DNA of 61,107 nt, filler included, from an uncultured bacterium (lineage in GTDB: Bacteria; Hinthialibacterota; Hinthialibacteria; Hinthialibacterales; Hinthialibacteraceae), in NCBI GenBank assembly GCA_964449065.1. It is 4 parts of 4 records of this genome, joined end to end, with 100 filler letters (N's around TTAATTAATTAA, not from the genome) between each part and the next. Parts side by side here need not be neighbours in the genome. Positions count along the whole stretch, not along the records: positions 30,638 to 45,837 come from CAYVAZ010000103.1; 3 more parts are not named here. The stretch is one strand, 5' to 3'. Made by a program: the position numbers and the translations under genes. Position 1 is the first letter of the stretch, and every line of letters begins with the position of its first letter. Under the pieces are notes generated by a model. It ran no database searches. It saw nothing but the letters and a program-made list of their open reading frames with translations, and had not been told where the DNA came from. Below are positions 34,879 to 45,937 of the stretch, piece after piece.

Positions 34879-35272
34879 GGTTCTCTCCCCTAAATAATTC
34901 TTTCTGATTCTAAGGGAAAATATTGGTAAAATAAAGAGGTTTGGGATAGATATTCAACTGACAAGCAAATAATTTTGGTGCATGTTGTAACTTCTCTATA
35001 CCGCGAAAGATAAACCAACTCAATCCTAAAACGCTTAAACTTGCCCGCAACCCATCTTATGAAACCATCCAATGATTGGGGTGAATTAAAATATTTATGG
35101 ACTTAAAAAAATTATACCGACAAACATATAAATATGTGTATGTATCATATATGCATATAAATGAGTATGTTATGGAATATTTATTATTATTGTATATATA
35201 TGATAAATTCAGTTATGTTAATAATTTAATGTAATGCTATTAAATTATTAACATAATTTTTTTAAAAAAAAC

Positions 35273-35303
35273 TTGACAGTAAATGAGGGGGGGGGGCTAA
35301 TCT
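35273..35303 (+). promoter_or_regulatory. Sigma70-like promoter with a G10 tract in the spacer
   Basis: TTGACA 35273-35278; G10 35287-35296; candidate -10 TAATCT 35298-35303 (19-nt spacer); AT-rich upstream region; AGGAGG RBS downstream. Confidence 0.55.
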
Positions 35304-35344
35304 ATATAAATAATACGTTTTAAAAAAAAGTTAGGAGGAAAAAC

Positions 35345-35788
35345 ATGAAGAGATTTTTGGTTGTAAGTGGTTTTTTAAGTATCTTAACTGTTTATTTGTT
35401 GGTTTCAACGGGTGCAGCCTCATCAATGCGTGCATTGTCATTTGATGAGATGGAGAATTTGACAGGCGGGCAGACAACACCATGTACCTATTGTACGGAT
35501 TACAGTTGGAGAGTTAAAGGTGCAACACTTTGCGAAACGAATGGATATACCATAGTGTATGATGCCTTATGTCACCCTATCGGCGGCGATGATTGCGTTA
35601 ACCTTGATGAACTTGTGGATTGTAGTACCTGCATAAAAGAAGTGAAATATAAAAAAAACTCAGCTATTGATGGTGGAACTTCAGCAACGGTGCGTTCATT
35701 TTGCTGGGCCGGCACTCTTTATGATTGGAATTGCTCAGGAGGAGTAGAAATCGAAAGTACAATTATTGGAAGATTGACTTGCCCTTAA
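35345..35788 (+). CDS. Secreted Cys-rich precursor with double-glycine leader
   Basis: Signal peptide (about aa 1-25), then MRALSFDEMENLTGG, then a 105-aa core with 10 Cys. Confidence 0.75.
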   Translation: MKRFLVVSGFLSILTVYLLVSTGAASSMRALSFDEMENLTGGQTTPCTYCTDYSWRVKGATLCETNGYTIVYDALCHPIGGDDCVNLDELVDCSTCIKEVKYKKNSAIDGGTSATVRSFCWAGTLYDWNCSGGVEIESTIIGRLTCP

Positions 35789-35837: not shown

Positions 35838-36815
35838 ATGTTTGGAGTAATTAAAAAAACGACAATATATCTGGCAATATTCTTAACAACTGTCATATCA
35901 GTACAAGCACAATCCGAAACGGTTAAAGAACTCTTCCAAGCGGTAGATCAATCCATTTCCGGGGTAAAAATAACTACGCGGTCTACCACGATCACTCCGA
36001 AAGAACGATATAATGATATGGCGGCAATGAATCGAAACAATGCATTAATTAGACAAAGACAAACAAAAGAAAGAGTCGCACGAAGAAGTGAGAAAGTTGA
36101 GTTTAATTTTCCGGATGTGGAAGAAAGTTACCCCATGGCAACAGAAGATGTGTATAAAATAACTGAAAAAGAACTCATCTATGCGAATGGAGAAATACAA
36201 ATGACAGCCGAAATCTCCCCGGATTCGGCTGGAGGCAGTCAATTTATTCGACAAACGGTTTTGTTGGGATTAACGGAAGACATAACAATTATCTTTCACA
36301 AGGTGTCGAATGATACACTGGACCCGGCAATCGAACCTTTTGCTAGGATAGAGAAAAAACCAATCCCGACCAAGTTGTTTTCAAGAGGGGCACACGCATA
36401 TGGCAGAGGCTTATCCTCTTTTTCGGGAACCAACATGGTTATGTCCAAAGATACAGAGTCAGCGAACGAAGATAAATACATCATTTCCATTGAGGCTGGA
36501 AGTAATGAGCCGGAATTTACACATGCGGTTATTCATGTGGATAAATCCAAAGGATTTTGTTGGACGGATGCGTATTTTTATAATCAAGAAGTCTTGAAAG
36601 AGGAGCTTCATGCGTCTGATTTTCGATTGGTTGATGGGTACTGGTTCCCGTTTCACATGGAAAGCACTTTTTATCTTCCGGAAAGTGATAGAACAGAAGA
36701 AAACATTATAAACCACAGATCATTTTCTGAAATTACGTCGTTGGAAATCGATCCATCTTTAACTCTAAATGCGGAAAGTTTGATCACGCCAGATATGAAA
36801 GTTTACCGCCGATAG
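35838..36815 (+). CDS. Secreted hypothetical protein with LolA-like C-terminus
   Basis: Signal peptide ending VQA; C-terminal VDKSKGF...SDFRLVDGYWFPFHME pattern; GAGG RBS. Confidence 0.55.
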   Translation: MFGVIKKTTIYLAIFLTTVISVQAQSETVKELFQAVDQSISGVKITTRSTTITPKERYNDMAAMNRNNALIRQRQTKERVARRSEKVEFNFPDVEESYPMATEDVYKITEKELIYANGEIQMTAEISPDSAGGSQFIRQTVLLGLTEDITIIFHKVSNDTLDPAIEPFARIEKKPIPTKLFSRGAHAYGRGLSSFSGTNMVMSKDTESANEDKYIISIEAGSNEPEFTHAVIHVDKSKGFCWTDAYFYNQEVLKEELHASDFRLVDGYWFPFHMESTFYLPESDRTEENIINHRSFSEITSLEIDPSLTLNAESLITPDMKVYRR

Positions 36816-36914: not shown

Positions 36915-38369
36915 ATGATACATAAGATCAAAAGAATTTTATTCTTGTTGATTCTATCTACTTCCAGTTTTGGTGCCCATAGCCAATACGAGACAGGAAA
37001 CAAGAATACTTGGCCTGATTTGGAAAACCATTCCGCTTACCATTACAAACGGTATCCCTGCGGTTTTAATGCCATGTATTATCTTCTTCAGCGATTGGAC
37101 AGGATGGCACAACTGAATGATGATGACAAAGAAACCTTATTAAAGATACCGGATATCGCAACTTTTAATCATTTACGGGAAATTAGCGGGAAGATAGGCG
37201 TTACATTGGAAGGGTTTCAAGTTACCTATAGTGAAATAAATGACTTTTCACTCATGATGACCATATTAGATGATGAACAGTATCAAGAAAATCATTATGT
37301 GGTGATTGAAAAAATAGATGATTCGGATCGATGGCTGGTGACGGATTGGCCTAATGCAAGATATACGCTTACTTCGAGTGAATTGCAAAAAATCACAAAT
37401 GGTTTCGTATTGGTTCCGGTCGAAAGCGTTGCAGAGTCCATACCCGGCCCGATACTCGTTGTGGATAGAAATCCAATAAATGTAGGAGATCATGAAAAAG
37501 ACGAAGTGTTCAATTTGCGTTATAAAGTATTCAATTATGGAACGAAACCCTTGACCATAGACGCAATAAATAGCACTTGCCAATGCACCATTCCAAATCT
37601 AAACCAAAAGTCAATAATGCCGGGTCAAAGCGAACTGTTCACAGTGGAAGTTACTACTTCTGAAAAAACTGGTGAGTGGAACGAATTCATCACGCTAAAA
37701 TGCAATGACACATATTTACCATCACCTGTAATAACTGTTTCCGGTAACAGTAAGCCATTATGGGAAATTTCAAAGGAAAAAATAGCATTTCGATATACTA
37801 CATTGTTTGACATCCGGGAAAAACAGATCGAATTAACCATAAAATTCAATACAAAAAAAGAATTACATCCGGATGATTTTATGATTGAAATTTTGTCAGA
37901 TACGTTTTTTCAATATCAAATCAATTCTCAATTGTTGGCCATGAAAAGGTCTGGTTTGACAAAGTCCTTTAAATATATGTTTACTTTGAATACGGATATG
38001 CTTGTCCCATTACTCGTTGATGGTGTTGTGATTATACAACACAAAACAAAGCCAGACATTGATATCAGAATCCCGCTATTTATACATCCCCCTAAAGATT
38101 TTCGGATTTATCCACAACCAGCAACACTTACATTAAATCAACCCGCATCTATTGAACTACAGGCTGGAGCAATCGACTTGGGAAATACAAAGATCATTTC
38201 TGATTTAGATTTTGTAACCGTAAGTAATGTAAGCACAACCAATCAAACTAATAACATGACTATCACAATTTATAAAGATTATAAGGAAAGTTTCCTGCCA
38301 TTAACCCTTATCAATGGTGATAGAAAAGCTACTATTGGCATTCCGGTGTTTTCAAGTACTTTATTTTAG
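36915..38369 (+). CDS. Secreted peptidase C39-like domain fused to DUF1573 Ig-like domain
   Basis: Signal peptide from ATG 36915; CGFNAMY...NHYVVIE...VTDWP (C-H-D); FNYGTKPLTIDAINSTCQCT...IMPG. Confidence 0.75.
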   Translation: MIHKIKRILFLLILSTSSFGAHSQYETGNKNTWPDLENHSAYHYKRYPCGFNAMYYLLQRLDRMAQLNDDDKETLLKIPDIATFNHLREISGKIGVTLEGFQVTYSEINDFSLMMTILDDEQYQENHYVVIEKIDDSDRWLVTDWPNARYTLTSSELQKITNGFVLVPVESVAESIPGPILVVDRNPINVGDHEKDEVFNLRYKVFNYGTKPLTIDAINSTCQCTIPNLNQKSIMPGQSELFTVEVTTSEKTGEWNEFITLKCNDTYLPSPVITVSGNSKPLWEISKEKIAFRYTTLFDIREKQIELTIKFNTKKELHPDDFMIEILSDTFFQYQINSQLLAMKRSGLTKSFKYMFTLNTDMLVPLLVDGVVIIQHKTKPDIDIRIPLFIHPPKDFRIYPQPATLTLNQPASIELQAGAIDLGNTKIISDLDFVTVSNVSTTNQTNNMTITIYKDYKESFLPLTLINGDRKATIGIPVFSSTLF

Positions 38370-39700: not shown

Positions 39701-40567
39701 ATGATGGACGGAAGACTTTATAACGACAGAAATAAGTCGCGCAAAAAGCGCGGGTTTTCGATGATTGAGATGATCATCGTTATTGGTATCTTAGGCATCA
39801 TGATTGGCGTGGGTGCCACCAGTTTTGTGACCCAGGCCAACCGCAACCGCCTCAATACCACCAGCCGCATCATCTCCACCACCCTGCAGCAGGCGCGCCA
39901 GATGGCGATTGCGATGCGCCAAGACCGGCGGGTTGCAATTGACGCGGGAGAGTTGGACGGCTTTTCGAACAATGATATATCCGGTGTGCGGATTGAACCG
40001 GCCCGGATTTGGATTGAAGGCAAACGCTGTGAGCAGCTCCCATTCAGCGCGAACGCCGCGTGTCAAGGCGGCGGTACCGATCTTCCCAACGCCATTGAAT
40101 TGACCGATACCGAAAATTTGCCGGATGGCGTGATGATTGGGTTTGATGATGAAGTGCCCGGTATAGATGGCCCCAATATCTTTTATGTGGAATTTAGCCC
40201 GCGCGGTAATGTCAGCAAAGTGTATTATGAGGATGAAGAGCAAGAAACGCTTCCTAATTTTCATGAAGCGGTCATCTTTGTTATACGCGACAATGAGTCC
40301 TTCCAGCTGCGAAGCGGTACCGTGGATTATCATACTTTAGTCAATAATGGCAGAAGCCTTCCAGAATTTGAATTCAATCAAGGGGATGATAGAAGCAATA
40401 CGAACGAAGAAGTGATCCGCGAAGATTTAGAGCGCTATGACATCAACACCGTTGAAATCATCCGCTTAACCGGACGCACGCGTACGTATGATTATGCGGT
40501 TTTAGGTCCGTTCCCCTTGGACCATCCACCCGAATCAACAGATTTTGACCCTGATCTTAGACAATAG
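39701..40567 (+). CDS. Prepilin-type protein, GspH/FimT-like
   Basis: KKRG|FSMIEMIIV class III signal; LQQARQMAI. Confidence 0.8.
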   Translation: MMDGRLYNDRNKSRKKRGFSMIEMIIVIGILGIMIGVGATSFVTQANRNRLNTTSRIISTTLQQARQMAIAMRQDRRVAIDAGELDGFSNNDISGVRIEPARIWIEGKRCEQLPFSANAACQGGGTDLPNAIELTDTENLPDGVMIGFDDEVPGIDGPNIFYVEFSPRGNVSKVYYEDEEQETLPNFHEAVIFVIRDNESFQLRSGTVDYHTLVNNGRSLPEFEFNQGDDRSNTNEEVIREDLERYDINTVEIIRLTGRTRTYDYAVLGPFPLDHPPESTDFDPDLRQ

Positions 40568-40589
40568 GCGATAAGAGAGGAAAAGCATC

Positions 40590-42071
40590 ATGATATTCTT
40601 CTTGAAAGAATATAAAGACAAACAAGGACTTTCTTTAATTGAGGTGGTGGTCGCCGCCGCGATTATGGGAGTGGGTTTGCTCTCTATTGTGCAGATATTC
40701 CCATACGGTATTCAAGCCAGCCGCCGCTCGGAAGATTTAACCCAGGCCACCATGCTTGCCAATACCATCTTTGAGGGCCTCAAATCCGACCCGGTTAACT
40801 TCCCCATTTTGCCGAACGATTCGGATACATTGGTTCCTATCCCCGGTAACGGATTTGATGATGATACGAATAATTCGATGTTTGATCAAACCCGCACCCG
40901 CGGCCGCCGCGCTCCCGGCGACTTTAACAACAACGGCATTCCCGATACTGATTATGACGGTACGCCCGAACGCGATGGCTCCCCCCACTTTACCGGCCGG
41001 CCCAACGGCTTGGATGATGACGGCGACGGCGTCATCGATGACAGCGGCGACAGCAGCTCGAAAAGCTTTCAAGCCGTCCCGCGTTCATTTTCCCTTTTGG
41101 CCCCGGATGGCGATTACAACTACGATCCAGAACTCAATATCGATGAAGAATTCGCCGATGGTATCGATAATGACCGTGACGGGTTGATTGATGAAGATAC
41201 GCGGTTGCCGTCTGTCCGTATCGGCGGCAGCAACTTTATGATTCCCTGGATTGCGGGGGATGGAATAGATAACGATGGAGATGGCGAAGACAATGATAAT
41301 GATCCTAACACGCCCGCAATCGCCGATGGCTTAGACAACAATAATGACGGCCGGATAGACGAAGGCATCGATGAAGAAATTTGGGATGGACGGGACAATG
41401 ACGGCAACAATGGAGTGGATGAAGACACTCAACTCGCCGCGTTTCCCTTTATGCCGGCAAAATTAGCGCCTCCTTTTGACCGCTATAGTTGGCAAATCAG
41501 AGTAGGTAGTGTGCCCGATAATGGCAATTATGGCCTGATTGATAGGAATGGGGATGGAATTCCTGAACTTGGCGATGGCGTGGATAACGACGGTGATGGT
41601 TTGGTGGATGAAGAATTGCCCGACGGTTTGGACTTTGATTTCCCCGTTTCATCCACCGGACGCGGTTTGAATATTCAGGCCTATACCCGCCAGCCCACAT
41701 CCGACGGATTGGTGGATGAAGACACGGTTTCAGGCACGCTGCCGAACTGGCGCCGGGTTGAAATCATCATCACCTGGGGCGGCGACGGTGAGGACAATGA
41801 TGGAGATATGCAGTCTGTTGACCCAAGATTTGACGGCAGACGATCCGTCAGCCGTTCGACCATTTCATACAGTGGCATTACTTGGGGGATCGACGAAGAA
41901 AAAGAAGACGGGATTGACAACGATTTTGACGGCGAAATCGATGAAGATACCTATAAATTTGATTTTAAACTGGTTGGATTCATCAATTTGGATGATCCAT
42001 CCGAGTCGTTCACGTTTCGAAGTGGGCAGCCGAGAGGCATCGCGCCATCGATCGTTTCGAATATCCGGTAG
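40590..42071 (+). CDS. Prepilin-type protein, GspI/PilV-like, with acidic repeats
   Basis: KQG|LSLIEVVVA; ATMLANTIFE; RRVEIIITW; multiple DGxDNDxDGxxDE. Confidence 0.8.
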   Translation: MIFFLKEYKDKQGLSLIEVVVAAAIMGVGLLSIVQIFPYGIQASRRSEDLTQATMLANTIFEGLKSDPVNFPILPNDSDTLVPIPGNGFDDDTNNSMFDQTRTRGRRAPGDFNNNGIPDTDYDGTPERDGSPHFTGRPNGLDDDGDGVIDDSGDSSSKSFQAVPRSFSLLAPDGDYNYDPELNIDEEFADGIDNDRDGLIDEDTRLPSVRIGGSNFMIPWIAGDGIDNDGDGEDNDNDPNTPAIADGLDNNNDGRIDEGIDEEIWDGRDNDGNNGVDEDTQLAAFPFMPAKLAPPFDRYSWQIRVGSVPDNGNYGLIDRNGDGIPELGDGVDNDGDGLVDEELPDGLDFDFPVSSTGRGLNIQAYTRQPTSDGLVDEDTVSGTLPNWRRVEIIITWGGDGEDNDGDMQSVDPRFDGRRSVSRSTISYSGITWGIDEEKEDGIDNDFDGEIDEDTYKFDFKLVGFINLDDPSESFTFRSGQPRGIAPSIVSNIR

Positions 42072-42107
42072 ATAGAGGTAATAGATTACGTTCTGGAGAA
42101 AAGCATA

Positions 42108-43448
42108 ATGAAGCCAAATCCAGGTAGGACAGAGAAAACAAAATATCATTCCAAAAAGGCGTTCACGCTGATTGAGATTATGATTTCAATGGGCGTGTTG
42201 TCGATCCTTGCTGGAATCGCGGCGCAAACGTTTGTGGCGATTTTAGACTCGCGCGATGTCGCCTTAAAGCGGTTGGAAGTGAACGAGAACGCCCGAACGG
42301 TATTGGATTTTATCAGCGCGGATATCCGCACGGCTTATTTAACACCGGATTCCATTAAACCCGTGAATCCCCGCAATATTCAAGAAGGGACTCCCCGGTT
42401 TCGCTTTGCGGGCATTCACCGTGATATTTCGACCGAAGATGAACCGGGGATACCTGGTGCCGGCATTGATGATGACGGTGACGGCTTGATTGATGAAGAA
42501 GTGCTGGATGGAGTCGGAGGCGATTATCCTGGTGGTGCGGTTACCTCCCTTAAAAGCGGCAGAGCGCAAGAAGACCCCGGCTGTACCCGGGTGGATGATG
42601 AAGGGAATATTCTATTCAATGATGCCTCTTGTGTTGACGAAGATATTGGGTTGATCCCCAGTGATGTCCTTCACTTTGTCAGTGCGGTCGAAAACTCCGG
42701 TCAAACCATACTGCAAGAAATTTCATACGGATTGAATCCGGAAGGCACCCGGTTGGTACGGCGTGCGCAAGTGCTATCGCTTGACGGTGGCTCCCGCGCC
42801 CGCGTAGAACTGATTGATTTTGGCCAGTTTGTTGATAACGCAACCCGCAAGCGGTTGGTACCGCAGGCACCGGCTATTGGAGCCCCGGTTTCCCGTTCTG
42901 CCGTACGCGCTTCGGTTCAGAACTGGAACGATGGATCGAAATTTGGTCAACTCCAAGCGCGGTCCAGTAACTTTACCAATCAAAACCCGGCCAAATTGTT
43001 TCAAGTGTTGGCGTATGATATCCGCGGCTTGCGCTTTCGCTATTGGTATTACGATTACAACCGCGGCGGCTGGCGTTTTACCCGCGAATGGGATTCCGCC
43101 CGTGAAACCGCTTTGCTCACGCCGGGAGAAAACCTGTTTAATCAGCCTGCGCTGAACAGTGGAATTGAAGGAAGAAATCGAATGGGGTTCGAGAACATTA
43201 TCGTCAATGAACCGGAAGATATGTATCCGCGGATAGGGGGGATGGATTTTTTGGTGCGCAGTCCGCGGCAACTTACCAGTTCAAATGAATTTACGGAATC
43301 CCTACAAAGTATTGCGAAACAGACAGATGGATTGCCGAACATGGTGGAAATCACGGTCTACGCGCAAGACCGCGAACGTACCTTAAACCCAAGAGCGTTT
43401 ACAACCCGTGTGTTTGTTCCAAACAACTACCGCAGTTTGGGTATATAA
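42108..43448 (+). CDS. Prepilin-type protein, GspJ/PilW-like
   Basis: KKA|FTLIEIMIS; ARTVLDFISADIRTA; LRFRYW; LPNMVEITV. Confidence 0.8.
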   Translation: MKPNPGRTEKTKYHSKKAFTLIEIMISMGVLSILAGIAAQTFVAILDSRDVALKRLEVNENARTVLDFISADIRTAYLTPDSIKPVNPRNIQEGTPRFRFAGIHRDISTEDEPGIPGAGIDDDGDGLIDEEVLDGVGGDYPGGAVTSLKSGRAQEDPGCTRVDDEGNILFNDASCVDEDIGLIPSDVLHFVSAVENSGQTILQEISYGLNPEGTRLVRRAQVLSLDGGSRARVELIDFGQFVDNATRKRLVPQAPAIGAPVSRSAVRASVQNWNDGSKFGQLQARSSNFTNQNPAKLFQVLAYDIRGLRFRYWYYDYNRGGWRFTREWDSARETALLTPGENLFNQPALNSGIEGRNRMGFENIIVNEPEDMYPRIGGMDFLVRSPRQLTSSNEFTESLQSIAKQTDGLPNMVEITVYAQDRERTLNPRAFTTRVFVPNNYRSLGI

Positions 43449-43478
43449 CCCTTGAAGCCGCAGGCAGAGGAAGCAGTT

Positions 43479-45837
43479 ATGAATACGTTAAACAAACAAT
43501 TAACACTACCGCGTCAACCCAAAACGAATCCCAAAAAAGGGATCGCGTTGATCACCGTGCTCGCGTTTTTATCCATTTTCGCGATCATCATGGTTTCGTT
43601 TGTGTTCTCGATTCGCATTGAAGAGGTCACCACGCAAAACTATTCGGACAGCATCAACATTGAGCAGGCTTCCGAAGCCGCCATTCAGGCGGTTCTCAGC
43701 CAAGTGGCGCGCGATTTAGACACCAGCGAACCCAATATGATACTGGGGCGTCCGCAGCCGCGTTATATTTCGTTGCTGGACCCGTGGGCGGTGGGGTATG
43801 CCGGTCAAGCCGGGCCGCGTGTGCTGTATGATGCCCGCAGCTATCAGGTGGATATCCGCCCTGAACGTCAGTTCCGCCGCGCGGGCATGCAAGTGTATCC
43901 CACACCGATTCCACTGGGTGTGGATGAAGACCCCGAAGGCGATGTCACTGGATTCCAGCGCATTGTTCCCAATAACCAACGGGGGCGTGGAGACGGCTTT
44001 CCCGGTTTGGCAAATATCGACGATAGTTTGGATGGCTTGGTGGATAACGGCGGCGATACCGATTTGGCTGAAGATGATGATGAAGACTTTTTGCTGAATG
44101 AAGATCCGATGGATCTACGGCGTCCCGATTTAGGGGGTTCCGGTTTTTTCTTCCCTGCCGGTACCGGTTATGATGCCGACGGCGACCGTTTGGGTGTCAC
44201 AGATGAAAGCGCGAAACTTAACATCAACTTTGCGGGGAATAACAACAGCAACAGCAATCAGTATACTTACAATCTCGGCACTGGCCCTTCCGAACTGGAT
44301 TTGCCGGCTTACATCTATGGCCGGGTATTTCGTTTTTTAACCACAGGCGGTAATGTGTCACAACTCAATGCGCAGCAAGCCCAAGAAATTGCGGAACAGA
44401 TCGTCAACTTCCGCTATGGCAGCACGGGCGATGGCGGTCAATCACCCGCCAAACCGGGTGTGGATAATGCCGATGATAATTTAAACAACTCGCCTCAAAT
44501 ATTTGACGTCATTGAATTCAGCCAAGCCTACCAAACCAGCACCTTTGACGGCGAACCCTTTGCCATCGTAGGCGATGAATTGGATAACGATGACGATGGA
44601 TTTTTAAATGAAGAAGACGAACGCTACATCGGCCCCGCGACCGAAAACCAAAGCGGTACGCCGCTAACCGATGGGATTATTCGAACCCAAAACGGCGAAG
44701 AATTCCGGATGGGTGATAAAGTAGATAACGACGGCGACGGCTTTATCGATGAACAAAACGAGGGCATTGATGATTCATCTGAGTTTGATGTGTTCAAGCC
44801 CAAAGGCGATGACCGCCCGTATGCCTCTTCCGATGATTTAAAATTACTGGACGCGATACCGGATAGCGACCCGCCATTTGTGGTAAACGCGCCGCCATCT
44901 TTGTTTCAAATCTTACAGTCTTCCACCACGATTTTTAGCCAATCCGATCAAGTAGCAGGACCCATGAGCGGCAAAAATAATGAAGTGGCTAAAATCAACC
45001 CCAACATGATCAGCAATTGGCGCGCGGTCGATGTGTGGGAACAAGGCGACCCGGTCTCCAACCGCGCCGATTTTCAATACACCTCAGCCATGAAGGTGGA
45101 AGAACTGCTGCCCGCGTTGCAAGTGGATAACGACGGCGATTGGCAGATGTTTGCCGAACCGGATGTGATGAACGGCCAAGCCGATGGCATTGATAATGAC
45201 GGCGACGGCTTGGTGGATGAATCGTCCGATGATTGGGATGGAAACTTATATGCCAGTGGAGATTTCGACAGTTTTTCGGAAGCCGATACCGCATCGCTTG
45301 CCCTGCAAAATAGTATTGACGATGATGGCGACGGCCAAACCCGCGATGAAAACCGTCCGGGAGAAGATGTTGTCCGCCGTAAACGCGTACTGGGTACCGA
45401 AGAAGGCGGTGATGATGAAAATGAAGAAGTTACTTTCCGTCCGCGCGAAGAGAGAGAAATCGAGATCCGGATGGGGATGGTTGCCGAAGGCGACGGCGCC
45501 GACAACGACGGCGATGGTATCATCGATGATGACGGCGATTTCAATGGTGACAACATTATTACGTATGACCCCGAATGGCATGTGAATGAAGACGGCCCTG
45601 GCGATCTGAGCGGTGACGGCTACCCCGGATTGGGCGGCAATCCTGAAATGCGGGATGAAGACAATGCGGAAGGCGATATTGTCCGCAGACCCGATGTAAC
45701 GGATGATCTGCTGGTGACCAGTTTTGCCGATGACGATTTTGACGGGTTTGCCGATTTTAATGATCCGCAAGTTCTTGCGGCGATGTATACGCCGGAACTG
45801 GATGGTGTGGATAACGACGGCGACGGCGCGGTGGATG
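43479..45837 (+). CDS. GspK/PilX-like protein with acidic repeats, truncated at scaffold end
   Basis: KKG|IALITVL (no Glu5, typical of GspK/PilX); ASEAAIQ; DESAKLNIN; many DNDGDG repeats. Confidence 0.78.
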
Positions 45838-45937
45838 NNNNNNNNNNNNNNNNNNNNNNNNNNNNNNNNNNNNNNNNNNNNTTAATTAATTAANNNNNNN
45901 NNNNNNNNNNNNNNNNNNNNNNNNNNNNNNNNNNNNN
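45838..45937. other. Artificial scaffold linker
   Basis: N-run with TTAATTAATTAA. Confidence 0.95.

Follow-up and report, generated by a model that had tools for sequence, protein, structure and literature searches.

The open reading frame at 35345-35788 (plus strand, 147 aa) is a genuine precursor gene, encoding a signal peptide, a double-glycine leader and a cysteine-rich core. It lies in the window analysed here, i.e., the whole stretch of 61,107 nucleotides from an uncultured bacterium of the Hinthialibacteraceae, and it opens a cassette in which it is followed by an exported protein with a putative LolA fold and an exported fusion of a C39 peptidase with a DUF1573 domain. Together, the three genes would constitute a transporter-independent, extracytoplasmic pre-pro-protein system, in which we consider it probable, judging from sequence, that the trio is exported by Sec and that the periplasmic C39 domain cleaves the precursor after Gly42. 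The cassette forms a low-GC island (0.30-0.41 versus 0.47) flanked by two convergent housekeeping-type genes, and its features are as follows.

35213..35256, no strand: perfect inverted repeat (18-bp arms separated by 8 nt), shortly before the promoter
35273..35303, plus strand: candidate promoter (TTGACA at 35273-35278, 8 nt, G10 at 35287-35296, C, TAATCT)
35333..35338, plus strand: ribosome-binding site AGGAGG, 6 nt 5' of Met1, recognised by sequence
35345..35425, plus strand: Sec-type signal peptide, residues 1 to about 25-27 (MKR, hydrophobic stretch, GAASS), by a rule-based check
35426..35470, plus strand: double-glycine leader, residues 28-42, with the cut predicted after Gly42
35471..35788, plus strand: core of 105 aa with 10 Cys, one His and a net charge of -5
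35838..36815, plus strand: putative LolA-fold protein, 325 aa, with a signal peptide that looks cleavable; it may act as a carrier, a binder or an immunity protein
36915..38369, plus strand: C39 peptidase-DUF1573 protein, 484 aa from the ATG at 36915, with Cys49, His127 and Asp144 and no ABC part

The leader numbering in the initial annotation, L(-12) S(-11) E(-8) M(-7) L(-4) G(-2) G(-1), is correct: the first GG of the precursor is formed by residues 41-42, and the hydrophobic positions -12, -7 and -4 are occupied by L31, M36 and L39. The accompanying description of the core, 105 aa long and containing 10 Cys with two CxxC pairs and CP at its end, was confirmed on the translated ORF, where the core Cys residues (47, 50, 63, 76, 84, 93, 96, 120, 130 and 146) are all those of the precursor. 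Scored with a position profile built from 31 leaders of other genomes, the own leader being excluded, the precursor site ranked first among 3,718,972 positions in 33,929 ORFs of its own genome (25.5 bits, with 17.9 for the runner-up), and thus the leader is more than a chance resemblance. No Pfam or NCBIfam model names the precursor; the leader gave only sub-threshold matches, among them a weak one to TIGR04149 (E 0.011, below cut-off).

The sole near-full-length homolog, P0002 (61% identical), shares 12/27 residues of the signal peptide, 11/15 of the leader and 69/105 of the core, and retains all 10 Cys and both CxxC pairs. It also keeps the GG, whose loss among homologs had been put forward as a refutation of the leader. 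Translation from Met28, which would have removed the signal peptide, was rejected, as Met28 is Ile in P0002 and AGGAGG precedes Met1 with none before Met28; the signal peptide therefore stands. Relatives of the core were found at 61-74% identity only. A search for more distant ones among 1.84 billion representatives returned the sequence itself, P0003 and two chance matches to repeat proteins; a core search of the Atlas gave no usable match, and BLAST against the 33 other cores described below gave none. Structure prediction of the precursor, from a 3-row alignment, reached a pLDDT of 34, too low for the model to be used.

The LolA fold of the second protein is suggested by three weak sequence-level lines that agree: a match to PF17131 (E 2.6e-5, below cut-off), weak matches of the family profile to the LolA-superfamily structures 3buu and 9tp6 (E 0.001-0.005), and language-model neighbours that are LolA-, MucB/RseB- or TP0789-like (0.93-0.95). 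No Pfam or NCBIfam model reaches its cut-off on this protein. The third protein, encoded about 1.1 kb downstream of the precursor, matches PF03412 (E 7.5e-8, 32.7 bits at a cut-off of 22) and PF07610 (E 6.8e-14). It bears an N-terminal export signal, with the ATG start at 36915 supported by P0010, its DUF1573 contains the CxC (Cys222, Cys224), and it has additional, unassigned C-terminal domains. A profile of its C39 family matched the LahT147 (6MPZ, E 1e-15), PCAT1 and ComA peptidase structures (E 1e-15 to 1e-10); a single-sequence PDB search with the C39 domain gave chance matches only. No modifying enzyme of the RiPP type (lanthipeptide, radical-SAM or MNIO) was found among the window neighbours.

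For comparison, C39-DUF1573 proteins were searched for in 35 genomes of the window's phylum, in a set of 401 genomes including 366 outside it, and in 61 genomes from each of two other phyla, with many matches. The 51 loci examined comprise 11 from the first searches, 10 of the new matches in one of the two other phyla and 30 of the 37 new matches in the second; pattern scans found one locus each in genome contigs and metagenome contigs, and one relative locus (L022) belongs to a MAG filed as a Candidatus Omnitrophota bacterium. As the 51 loci cluster in few lineages, the counts are not independent. Precursor candidates were picked without reference to the motif, as same-strand ORFs of 60-300 aa with at least 6 Cys, which gave 76 ORFs, 36 of them with a hydrophobic N-terminus. 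A loose leader pattern, written after the sequences had been viewed, matched 32/36 of the hydrophobic ORFs and 1/40 of the non-hydrophobic ones, and a stricter pattern matched 10/36 and 0/40, respectively. Two precursors were then added by eye (L056 and L088), one cut site was moved (L110), and L106 (a cargo without the motif) and L119 (probably no gene) were dropped, resulting in a final set of 34 precursors in 32 of the 51 loci; one more precursor, at L121, falls slightly below the Cys threshold. With the own locus left out, 28/34 precursors score at least 10 bits, compared with 7/1317 other ORFs of this genome with a hydrophobic N-terminus.

The two stacked leaders proposed at the outset, and the combination of a conserved leader with a variable core, are both supported at these 32 loci. 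The cores range from 44 to 124 aa, and only 10 pairs of them are alike by BLAST, none including the core studied here. In 32/34 precursors the N-side of the hydrophobic stretch is the more positive, which by the positive-inside rule places the leader outside. The rule-based signal-peptidase site is good in 15 of the 34 and lacking in 6, so that some precursors may remain in the membrane until they are cleaved at the GG. A LolA-like gene is present in 43/51 loci, often fused to the peptidase, and 18/51 C39 loci, some of them on cut contigs, show no leader-bearing cargo. Among 81 of the 149 listed neighbours of the relatives, no ABC, radical-SAM or lanthionine enzymes were found, and the recurrent domains were GT-C glycosyltransferase, FGE-like, cytochrome c554-like, CBM9, BlaI/M56 and sigma-factor domains; by eye, ABC genes lie a few kb from the L056 and L087 cassettes, outside the operon.

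The predicted Sec export and periplasmic cleavage are supported by the genome-wide rank of the leader, the leave-one-out scores, the conserved catalytic triad, the positive-inside pattern and the lack of a C39-ABC protein. Among the 51 C39 proteins, the catalytic Cys is kept in 46, the His in 50 and the Asp in 43. The own genome (87% complete) contains two C39 matches, neither of them ABC-fused, and no C39-ABC fusion was found in it or in five other cassette-bearing genomes, where every ABC match begins past the peptidase part of the model. We propose that the precursor, the LolA-fold protein and the C39-DUF1573 protein, all of which carry signal peptides, would cross the inner membrane by Sec; the core would then form up to five disulfides, perhaps aided by the CxC of DUF1573; and the C39 domain would, as expected from its family, bind the leader helix through the hydrophobic residues at -12, -7 and -4 and cut after Gly42, freeing the 105-aa protein. 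Where a relative keeps its anchor uncleaved, release would come with the GG cut. In the last and least certain step, the LolA-fold protein would bind the cargo as a carrier or protector. 

It is rather improbable that the leader is merely a tag bound by a C39 domain with a chaperone role, such as the C39-like domain of HlyB has, or that the motif is a remnant. Three features would fit such a reading: the oxyanion Gln, six positions ahead of the catalytic Cys, is not conserved among the 51 proteins (it is His in this one), Ser or Thr replaces the Cys in 4/51 relatives, and residue -1 of the leader is variable (G 20, T 3, A 3 and S 2 of 31). However, Cys and His are kept at 32/32 precursor loci, Gly(-2) is near invariant, and the Ser/Thr loci carry no precursor, though three of them represent one genus. 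The Ser/Thr loci are L124, L125, L136 and L137, and several LolA-like genes each are found at L124, L125 and L136. Cleavage after the GG thus remains the preferred reading, and the precursor offers a precise, testable cut site in addition to the leads of a redox CxC and a contingency promoter.

The own genome provides a contrast that supports the pairing of leader and peptidase, as two DUF1573 cassettes without C39, C68 (L171) and C167 (L170), have a Cys-rich cargo that starts right after the signal peptide; the LolA-like gene of the C68 cassette was confirmed. These two loci and L163 have a DUF1573 without a fused C39, an exported partner of about 300 aa and a leaderless Cys-rich cargo, with a multi-pass membrane protein in two of the three. 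The leader tends to accompany the C39 peptidase, with L161, L168, L106 and L163 as exceptions: the C39-linked cargos of the first three score weakly (5.0, 0.0/1.3 and -4.5 bits, respectively), and at L163 a separate C39 gene lies 2 kb from the leaderless cargo. L161 (3784-6572, on C58) is the second C39 cassette of the own genome, with a 12-Cys cargo whose leader is degenerate; its C39 and DUF1573 occupy two overlapping frames, reflecting a frameshift or an assembly error. At 45 short loci with DUF1573 only, no Cys-rich cargo was present within a 1.5-kb flank. The partners of about 300 aa at L161, L170, L172, L163, L168 and L056 were considered as LolA-like and rejected, as they do not score with the LolA-like profile and are positional analogues only.

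The initial annotation had left open whether the core Cys residues form five disulfides or bind metal, and of these the disulfides are favoured and metal binding less so, because the protein is exported, 26/34 cores have an even number of Cys and the core contains a single His. A periplasmic metal-binding or redox protein acting through its CxxC pairs is the least probable of the functions weighed here. The two pairs are kept in P0002, and some loci have redox-type neighbours (cytochrome c554-like and FGE-like), but many cores are without CxxC, Cys spacing is not conserved, the core has its lone His, and hypervariability would not be expected of a metal chaperone. Disulfide formation thus remains the preferred reading, and we regard help from DUF1573 in this process as having slightly less than an even chance. 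A CxC lies behind the peptidase in 45/51 C39-DUF1573 proteins. Two LolA-C39-DUF1573 fusions, L139 (G502) and L140 (G461), have a TGA codon where the CxC begins, in place of its first Cys; a hairpin comes next, the frame stays open for 158 more residues, and both genomes contain selA and selB; these are probably selenoproteins with a UxC site, and no precursor was detected at either locus. A DUF1573 with a UGC motif is listed as a predicted selenoprotein in two reviews (PMC9312934 and PMC13188914), one of which argues that most such selenoproteins are redox-active. Among relatives, DUF1573-only genes stand beside a MauE-like gene at 13/26 loci. The sequence context suggests that the CxC is a redox folding site and that the fusion may both fold and cut its substrate, which would give DUF1573 a first testable job in disulfide handling; a structural disulfide is also possible. 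In the own genome, L173 (C176) is a DUF1573-rhodanese-MauE/DoxX operon.

Several known systems share parts of this arrangement. As described in the accessible text of PMC10885120 and PMC6363468, PCAT/AMS systems (LahT, ComA and PCAT1) likewise combine hydrophobic -12/-7/-4 positions and a GG leader with a Cys-His-Asp C39 peptidase and diverse cores. Their leader is N-terminal without a Sec signal, whereas here it stands behind one; the peptidase here is exported and fused to DUF1573 instead of an ABC part, Gln(-6) is not conserved, and the cores are Cys-rich and of the size range given above. The LahT co-crystal casts doubt on the role of this Gln, as it lies 4.3 A from the oxyanion, and a His has been proposed instead (PMC6363468, accessible text). 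In the cassette, the GG-leader/C39 pair would operate outside the cytoplasm and independently of an ABC exporter. By analogy, the closest precedent of the exported C39-DUF1573 protein appears to be the periplasmic FapD of the Pseudomonas Fap amyloid system, a stand-alone C39 with a Sec signal and no ABC part, whose Cys is needed and whose target is reported as unclear (PMC5557850, accessible text). In contrast to Fap, the cassette and the scanned neighbours lack a FapF-like channel and amyloid repeats, and a DUF1573 fusion, a LolA-fold partner and an adjacent canonical GG substrate are present. For periplasmic C39 peptidases, a class whose best-studied member had no clear target, the cassette may supply such a substrate. 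Members of the C39 family (n = 32) weakly match the NCBIfam models C39_FapD (13), pilus_FilB (4) and C39_PA2778 (1), and PCAT peptidase models match better.

Other comparisons concern the precursor and DUF1573. Bacteroidota NVEALA proteins (PF14055) have a signal peptide, a short conserved tag, a variable Cys-rich part and DUF1573 neighbours; no literature on them was found. Sec-exported bufferins may be a comparable group. Unlike both, the precursors here have no Pfam match and the cassette has no modifying enzyme. The DUF1573 UGC selenoproteins and NCBIfam OS_HP2 share the domain and the motif position (PMC9312934 and PMC13188914), but the domain here is of the Cys type and fused to a peptidase, and the redox activity of the former is, in those reviews, predicted only. 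No literature joining DUF1573 with C39 was found, and no description of the cassette was found by title or abstract in the open literature searched or in the accessible text of PMC10352776. The cassette is apparently an unpublished, recurring variant of the GG-leader/C39 system, and its leader could be used to search uncultured phyla for disulfide-rich scaffolds, many in number and unrelated to one another. Laboratory strains might in turn be made to produce such proteins with the aid of a GG protease that is soluble, periplasmic and joined to a folding domain.

Class II bacteriocins have a GG leader, some have disulfides, and their cores are small (under about 10 kDa), cationic and amphipathic. 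The precursor shares the GG leader with them and with microcins, but a signal peptide precedes it, the core has 105 aa and a net charge of -5, and no exporter was found; the class II bacteriocin frame of the initial annotation is therefore not supported. We tentatively propose, as the likeliest of the functions weighed, that the product is a hypervariable surface or secreted protein for interaction or adhesion, with its poly-G promoter as an on/off control, and not a membrane-permeabilising bacteriocin. Binding of the cargo by the LolA-fold protein is also predicted, with somewhat more confidence than this end function though with less than the disulfide help from DUF1573. The surface or secreted interaction protein is favoured over a toxin-immunity pair, signalling and metal binding.

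A secreted antibacterial protein, kept inactive by its leader until the cut and paired with the LolA-fold protein as cognate immunity, is unlikely. GG/C39 pairs typically mature bacteriocins (PMC10885120, accessible text), the cores are hypervariable, the islands are low-GC and patchy, L168 has the precursor-partner unit twice with one peptidase and partners 38% identical, and another poly-G promoter of the own genome drives a locus with a small exported DUF7689 protein. However, 25/34 cores are acidic, and the LolA-fold protein, 70-76% identical to its relatives, shows no faster divergence than the peptidase, which is 66% identical to its relative, and in this differs from typical immunity genes; moreover, LolA-like genes also occur without cargo (L001), and the L168 partners do not score with the LolA-like profile. 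A signalling module, in which the LolA-fold domain would sense the cut peptide or freed leader and elicit an ECF sigma or BlaI/BlaR1-type response, is less probable still. BlaI/M56 genes occur in L089, L092, L126, L127, L128 and L134; L127 (7218-9272) encodes a fusion of an M56/BlaR1 peptidase with a LolA-like domain; L056, L107, L110 and L166 have sigma-factor genes next to them; and at L056 (7050-8915), behind the sigma-factor gene, the C39-DUF1573 part is fused to a preceding membrane anchor that is anti-sigma-like by eye. Such regulators may control expression only, however, none stands beside this cassette, and a 105-aa core with five disulfides is large for a signal. We thus retain the surface or secreted interaction protein as the favoured product.

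The upstream region bears on this reading. The spacer of the candidate promoter is 19 nt at present and would be 17 nt after the loss of two G; a consensus promoter scan did not list 35273-35303 because this spacer exceeds 18. A homopolymer in the spacer behind TTGACA is the layout of phase-variable promoters, and the G10 tract between -35 and -10 suggests phase variation, making it a candidate contingency switch. In this genome, 4/10 G/C runs of at least 10 lie shortly behind TTGACA, versus 5/1293 six-base runs. The four sites are 35273-35303 of the window and C14:32, C167:4471 and C185:3635; this promoter and those on C167 and C185 drive exported Cys-rich loci, and the fourth points off its contig end. 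Such a layout speaks for surface products that face diversifying pressure. No length variants of the G10 were seen in the one contig covering the tract (among contigs of two DNA runs), and contigs drop rare variants; a poly-G tract was not seen before the other 33 precursors. The 5.2-Mb genome contains 8 perfect repeats whose arms reach 16 bp or more; the inverted repeat at 35213-35256 is among them and may be an operator or terminator.

On a broader and more doubtful reading, the cassette would belong to a widespread periplasmic 'fold, check and cut' line for bacterial miniproteins rich in disulfides, with a GG peptidase joined to a CxC/UxC redox domain, a LolA-fold carrier and a switchable library of cassettes. 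If true, there would be several cassettes per genome, some behind poly-G/C promoters, producing hypervariable surface or effector proteins. Conotoxins are made from precursors of signal, propeptide and cysteine framework, of which this line would then be a bacterial counterpart.

Some further loci are worth recording. At L168 (1159-5354), the precursor and partner unit occurs twice in tandem with a shared C39 gene. An orphan LolA-like paralog, 35% identical and without an upstream precursor, is found in the own genome at L001:3399-4553 (C43), and a 16-Cys gene is present on a short contig, C398. In the window, large prepilin-like genes whose repeats are rich in Asp and Gly are clustered at 39701-45893; a link to the cassette was considered and rejected, as about 116 such ORFs exist genome-wide and few in other loci, so that their proximity is likely due to chance. 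L169 (838-3573, on C185) comprises its poly-G promoter followed by genes for an exported TPR protein, an exported 197-aa DUF7689 protein with 10 Cys and an exported 231-aa protein, and is flanked by an insertion-sequence gene and an integrase-like fragment; the DUF7689 protein and the 231-aa protein look like a toxin-immunity pair.
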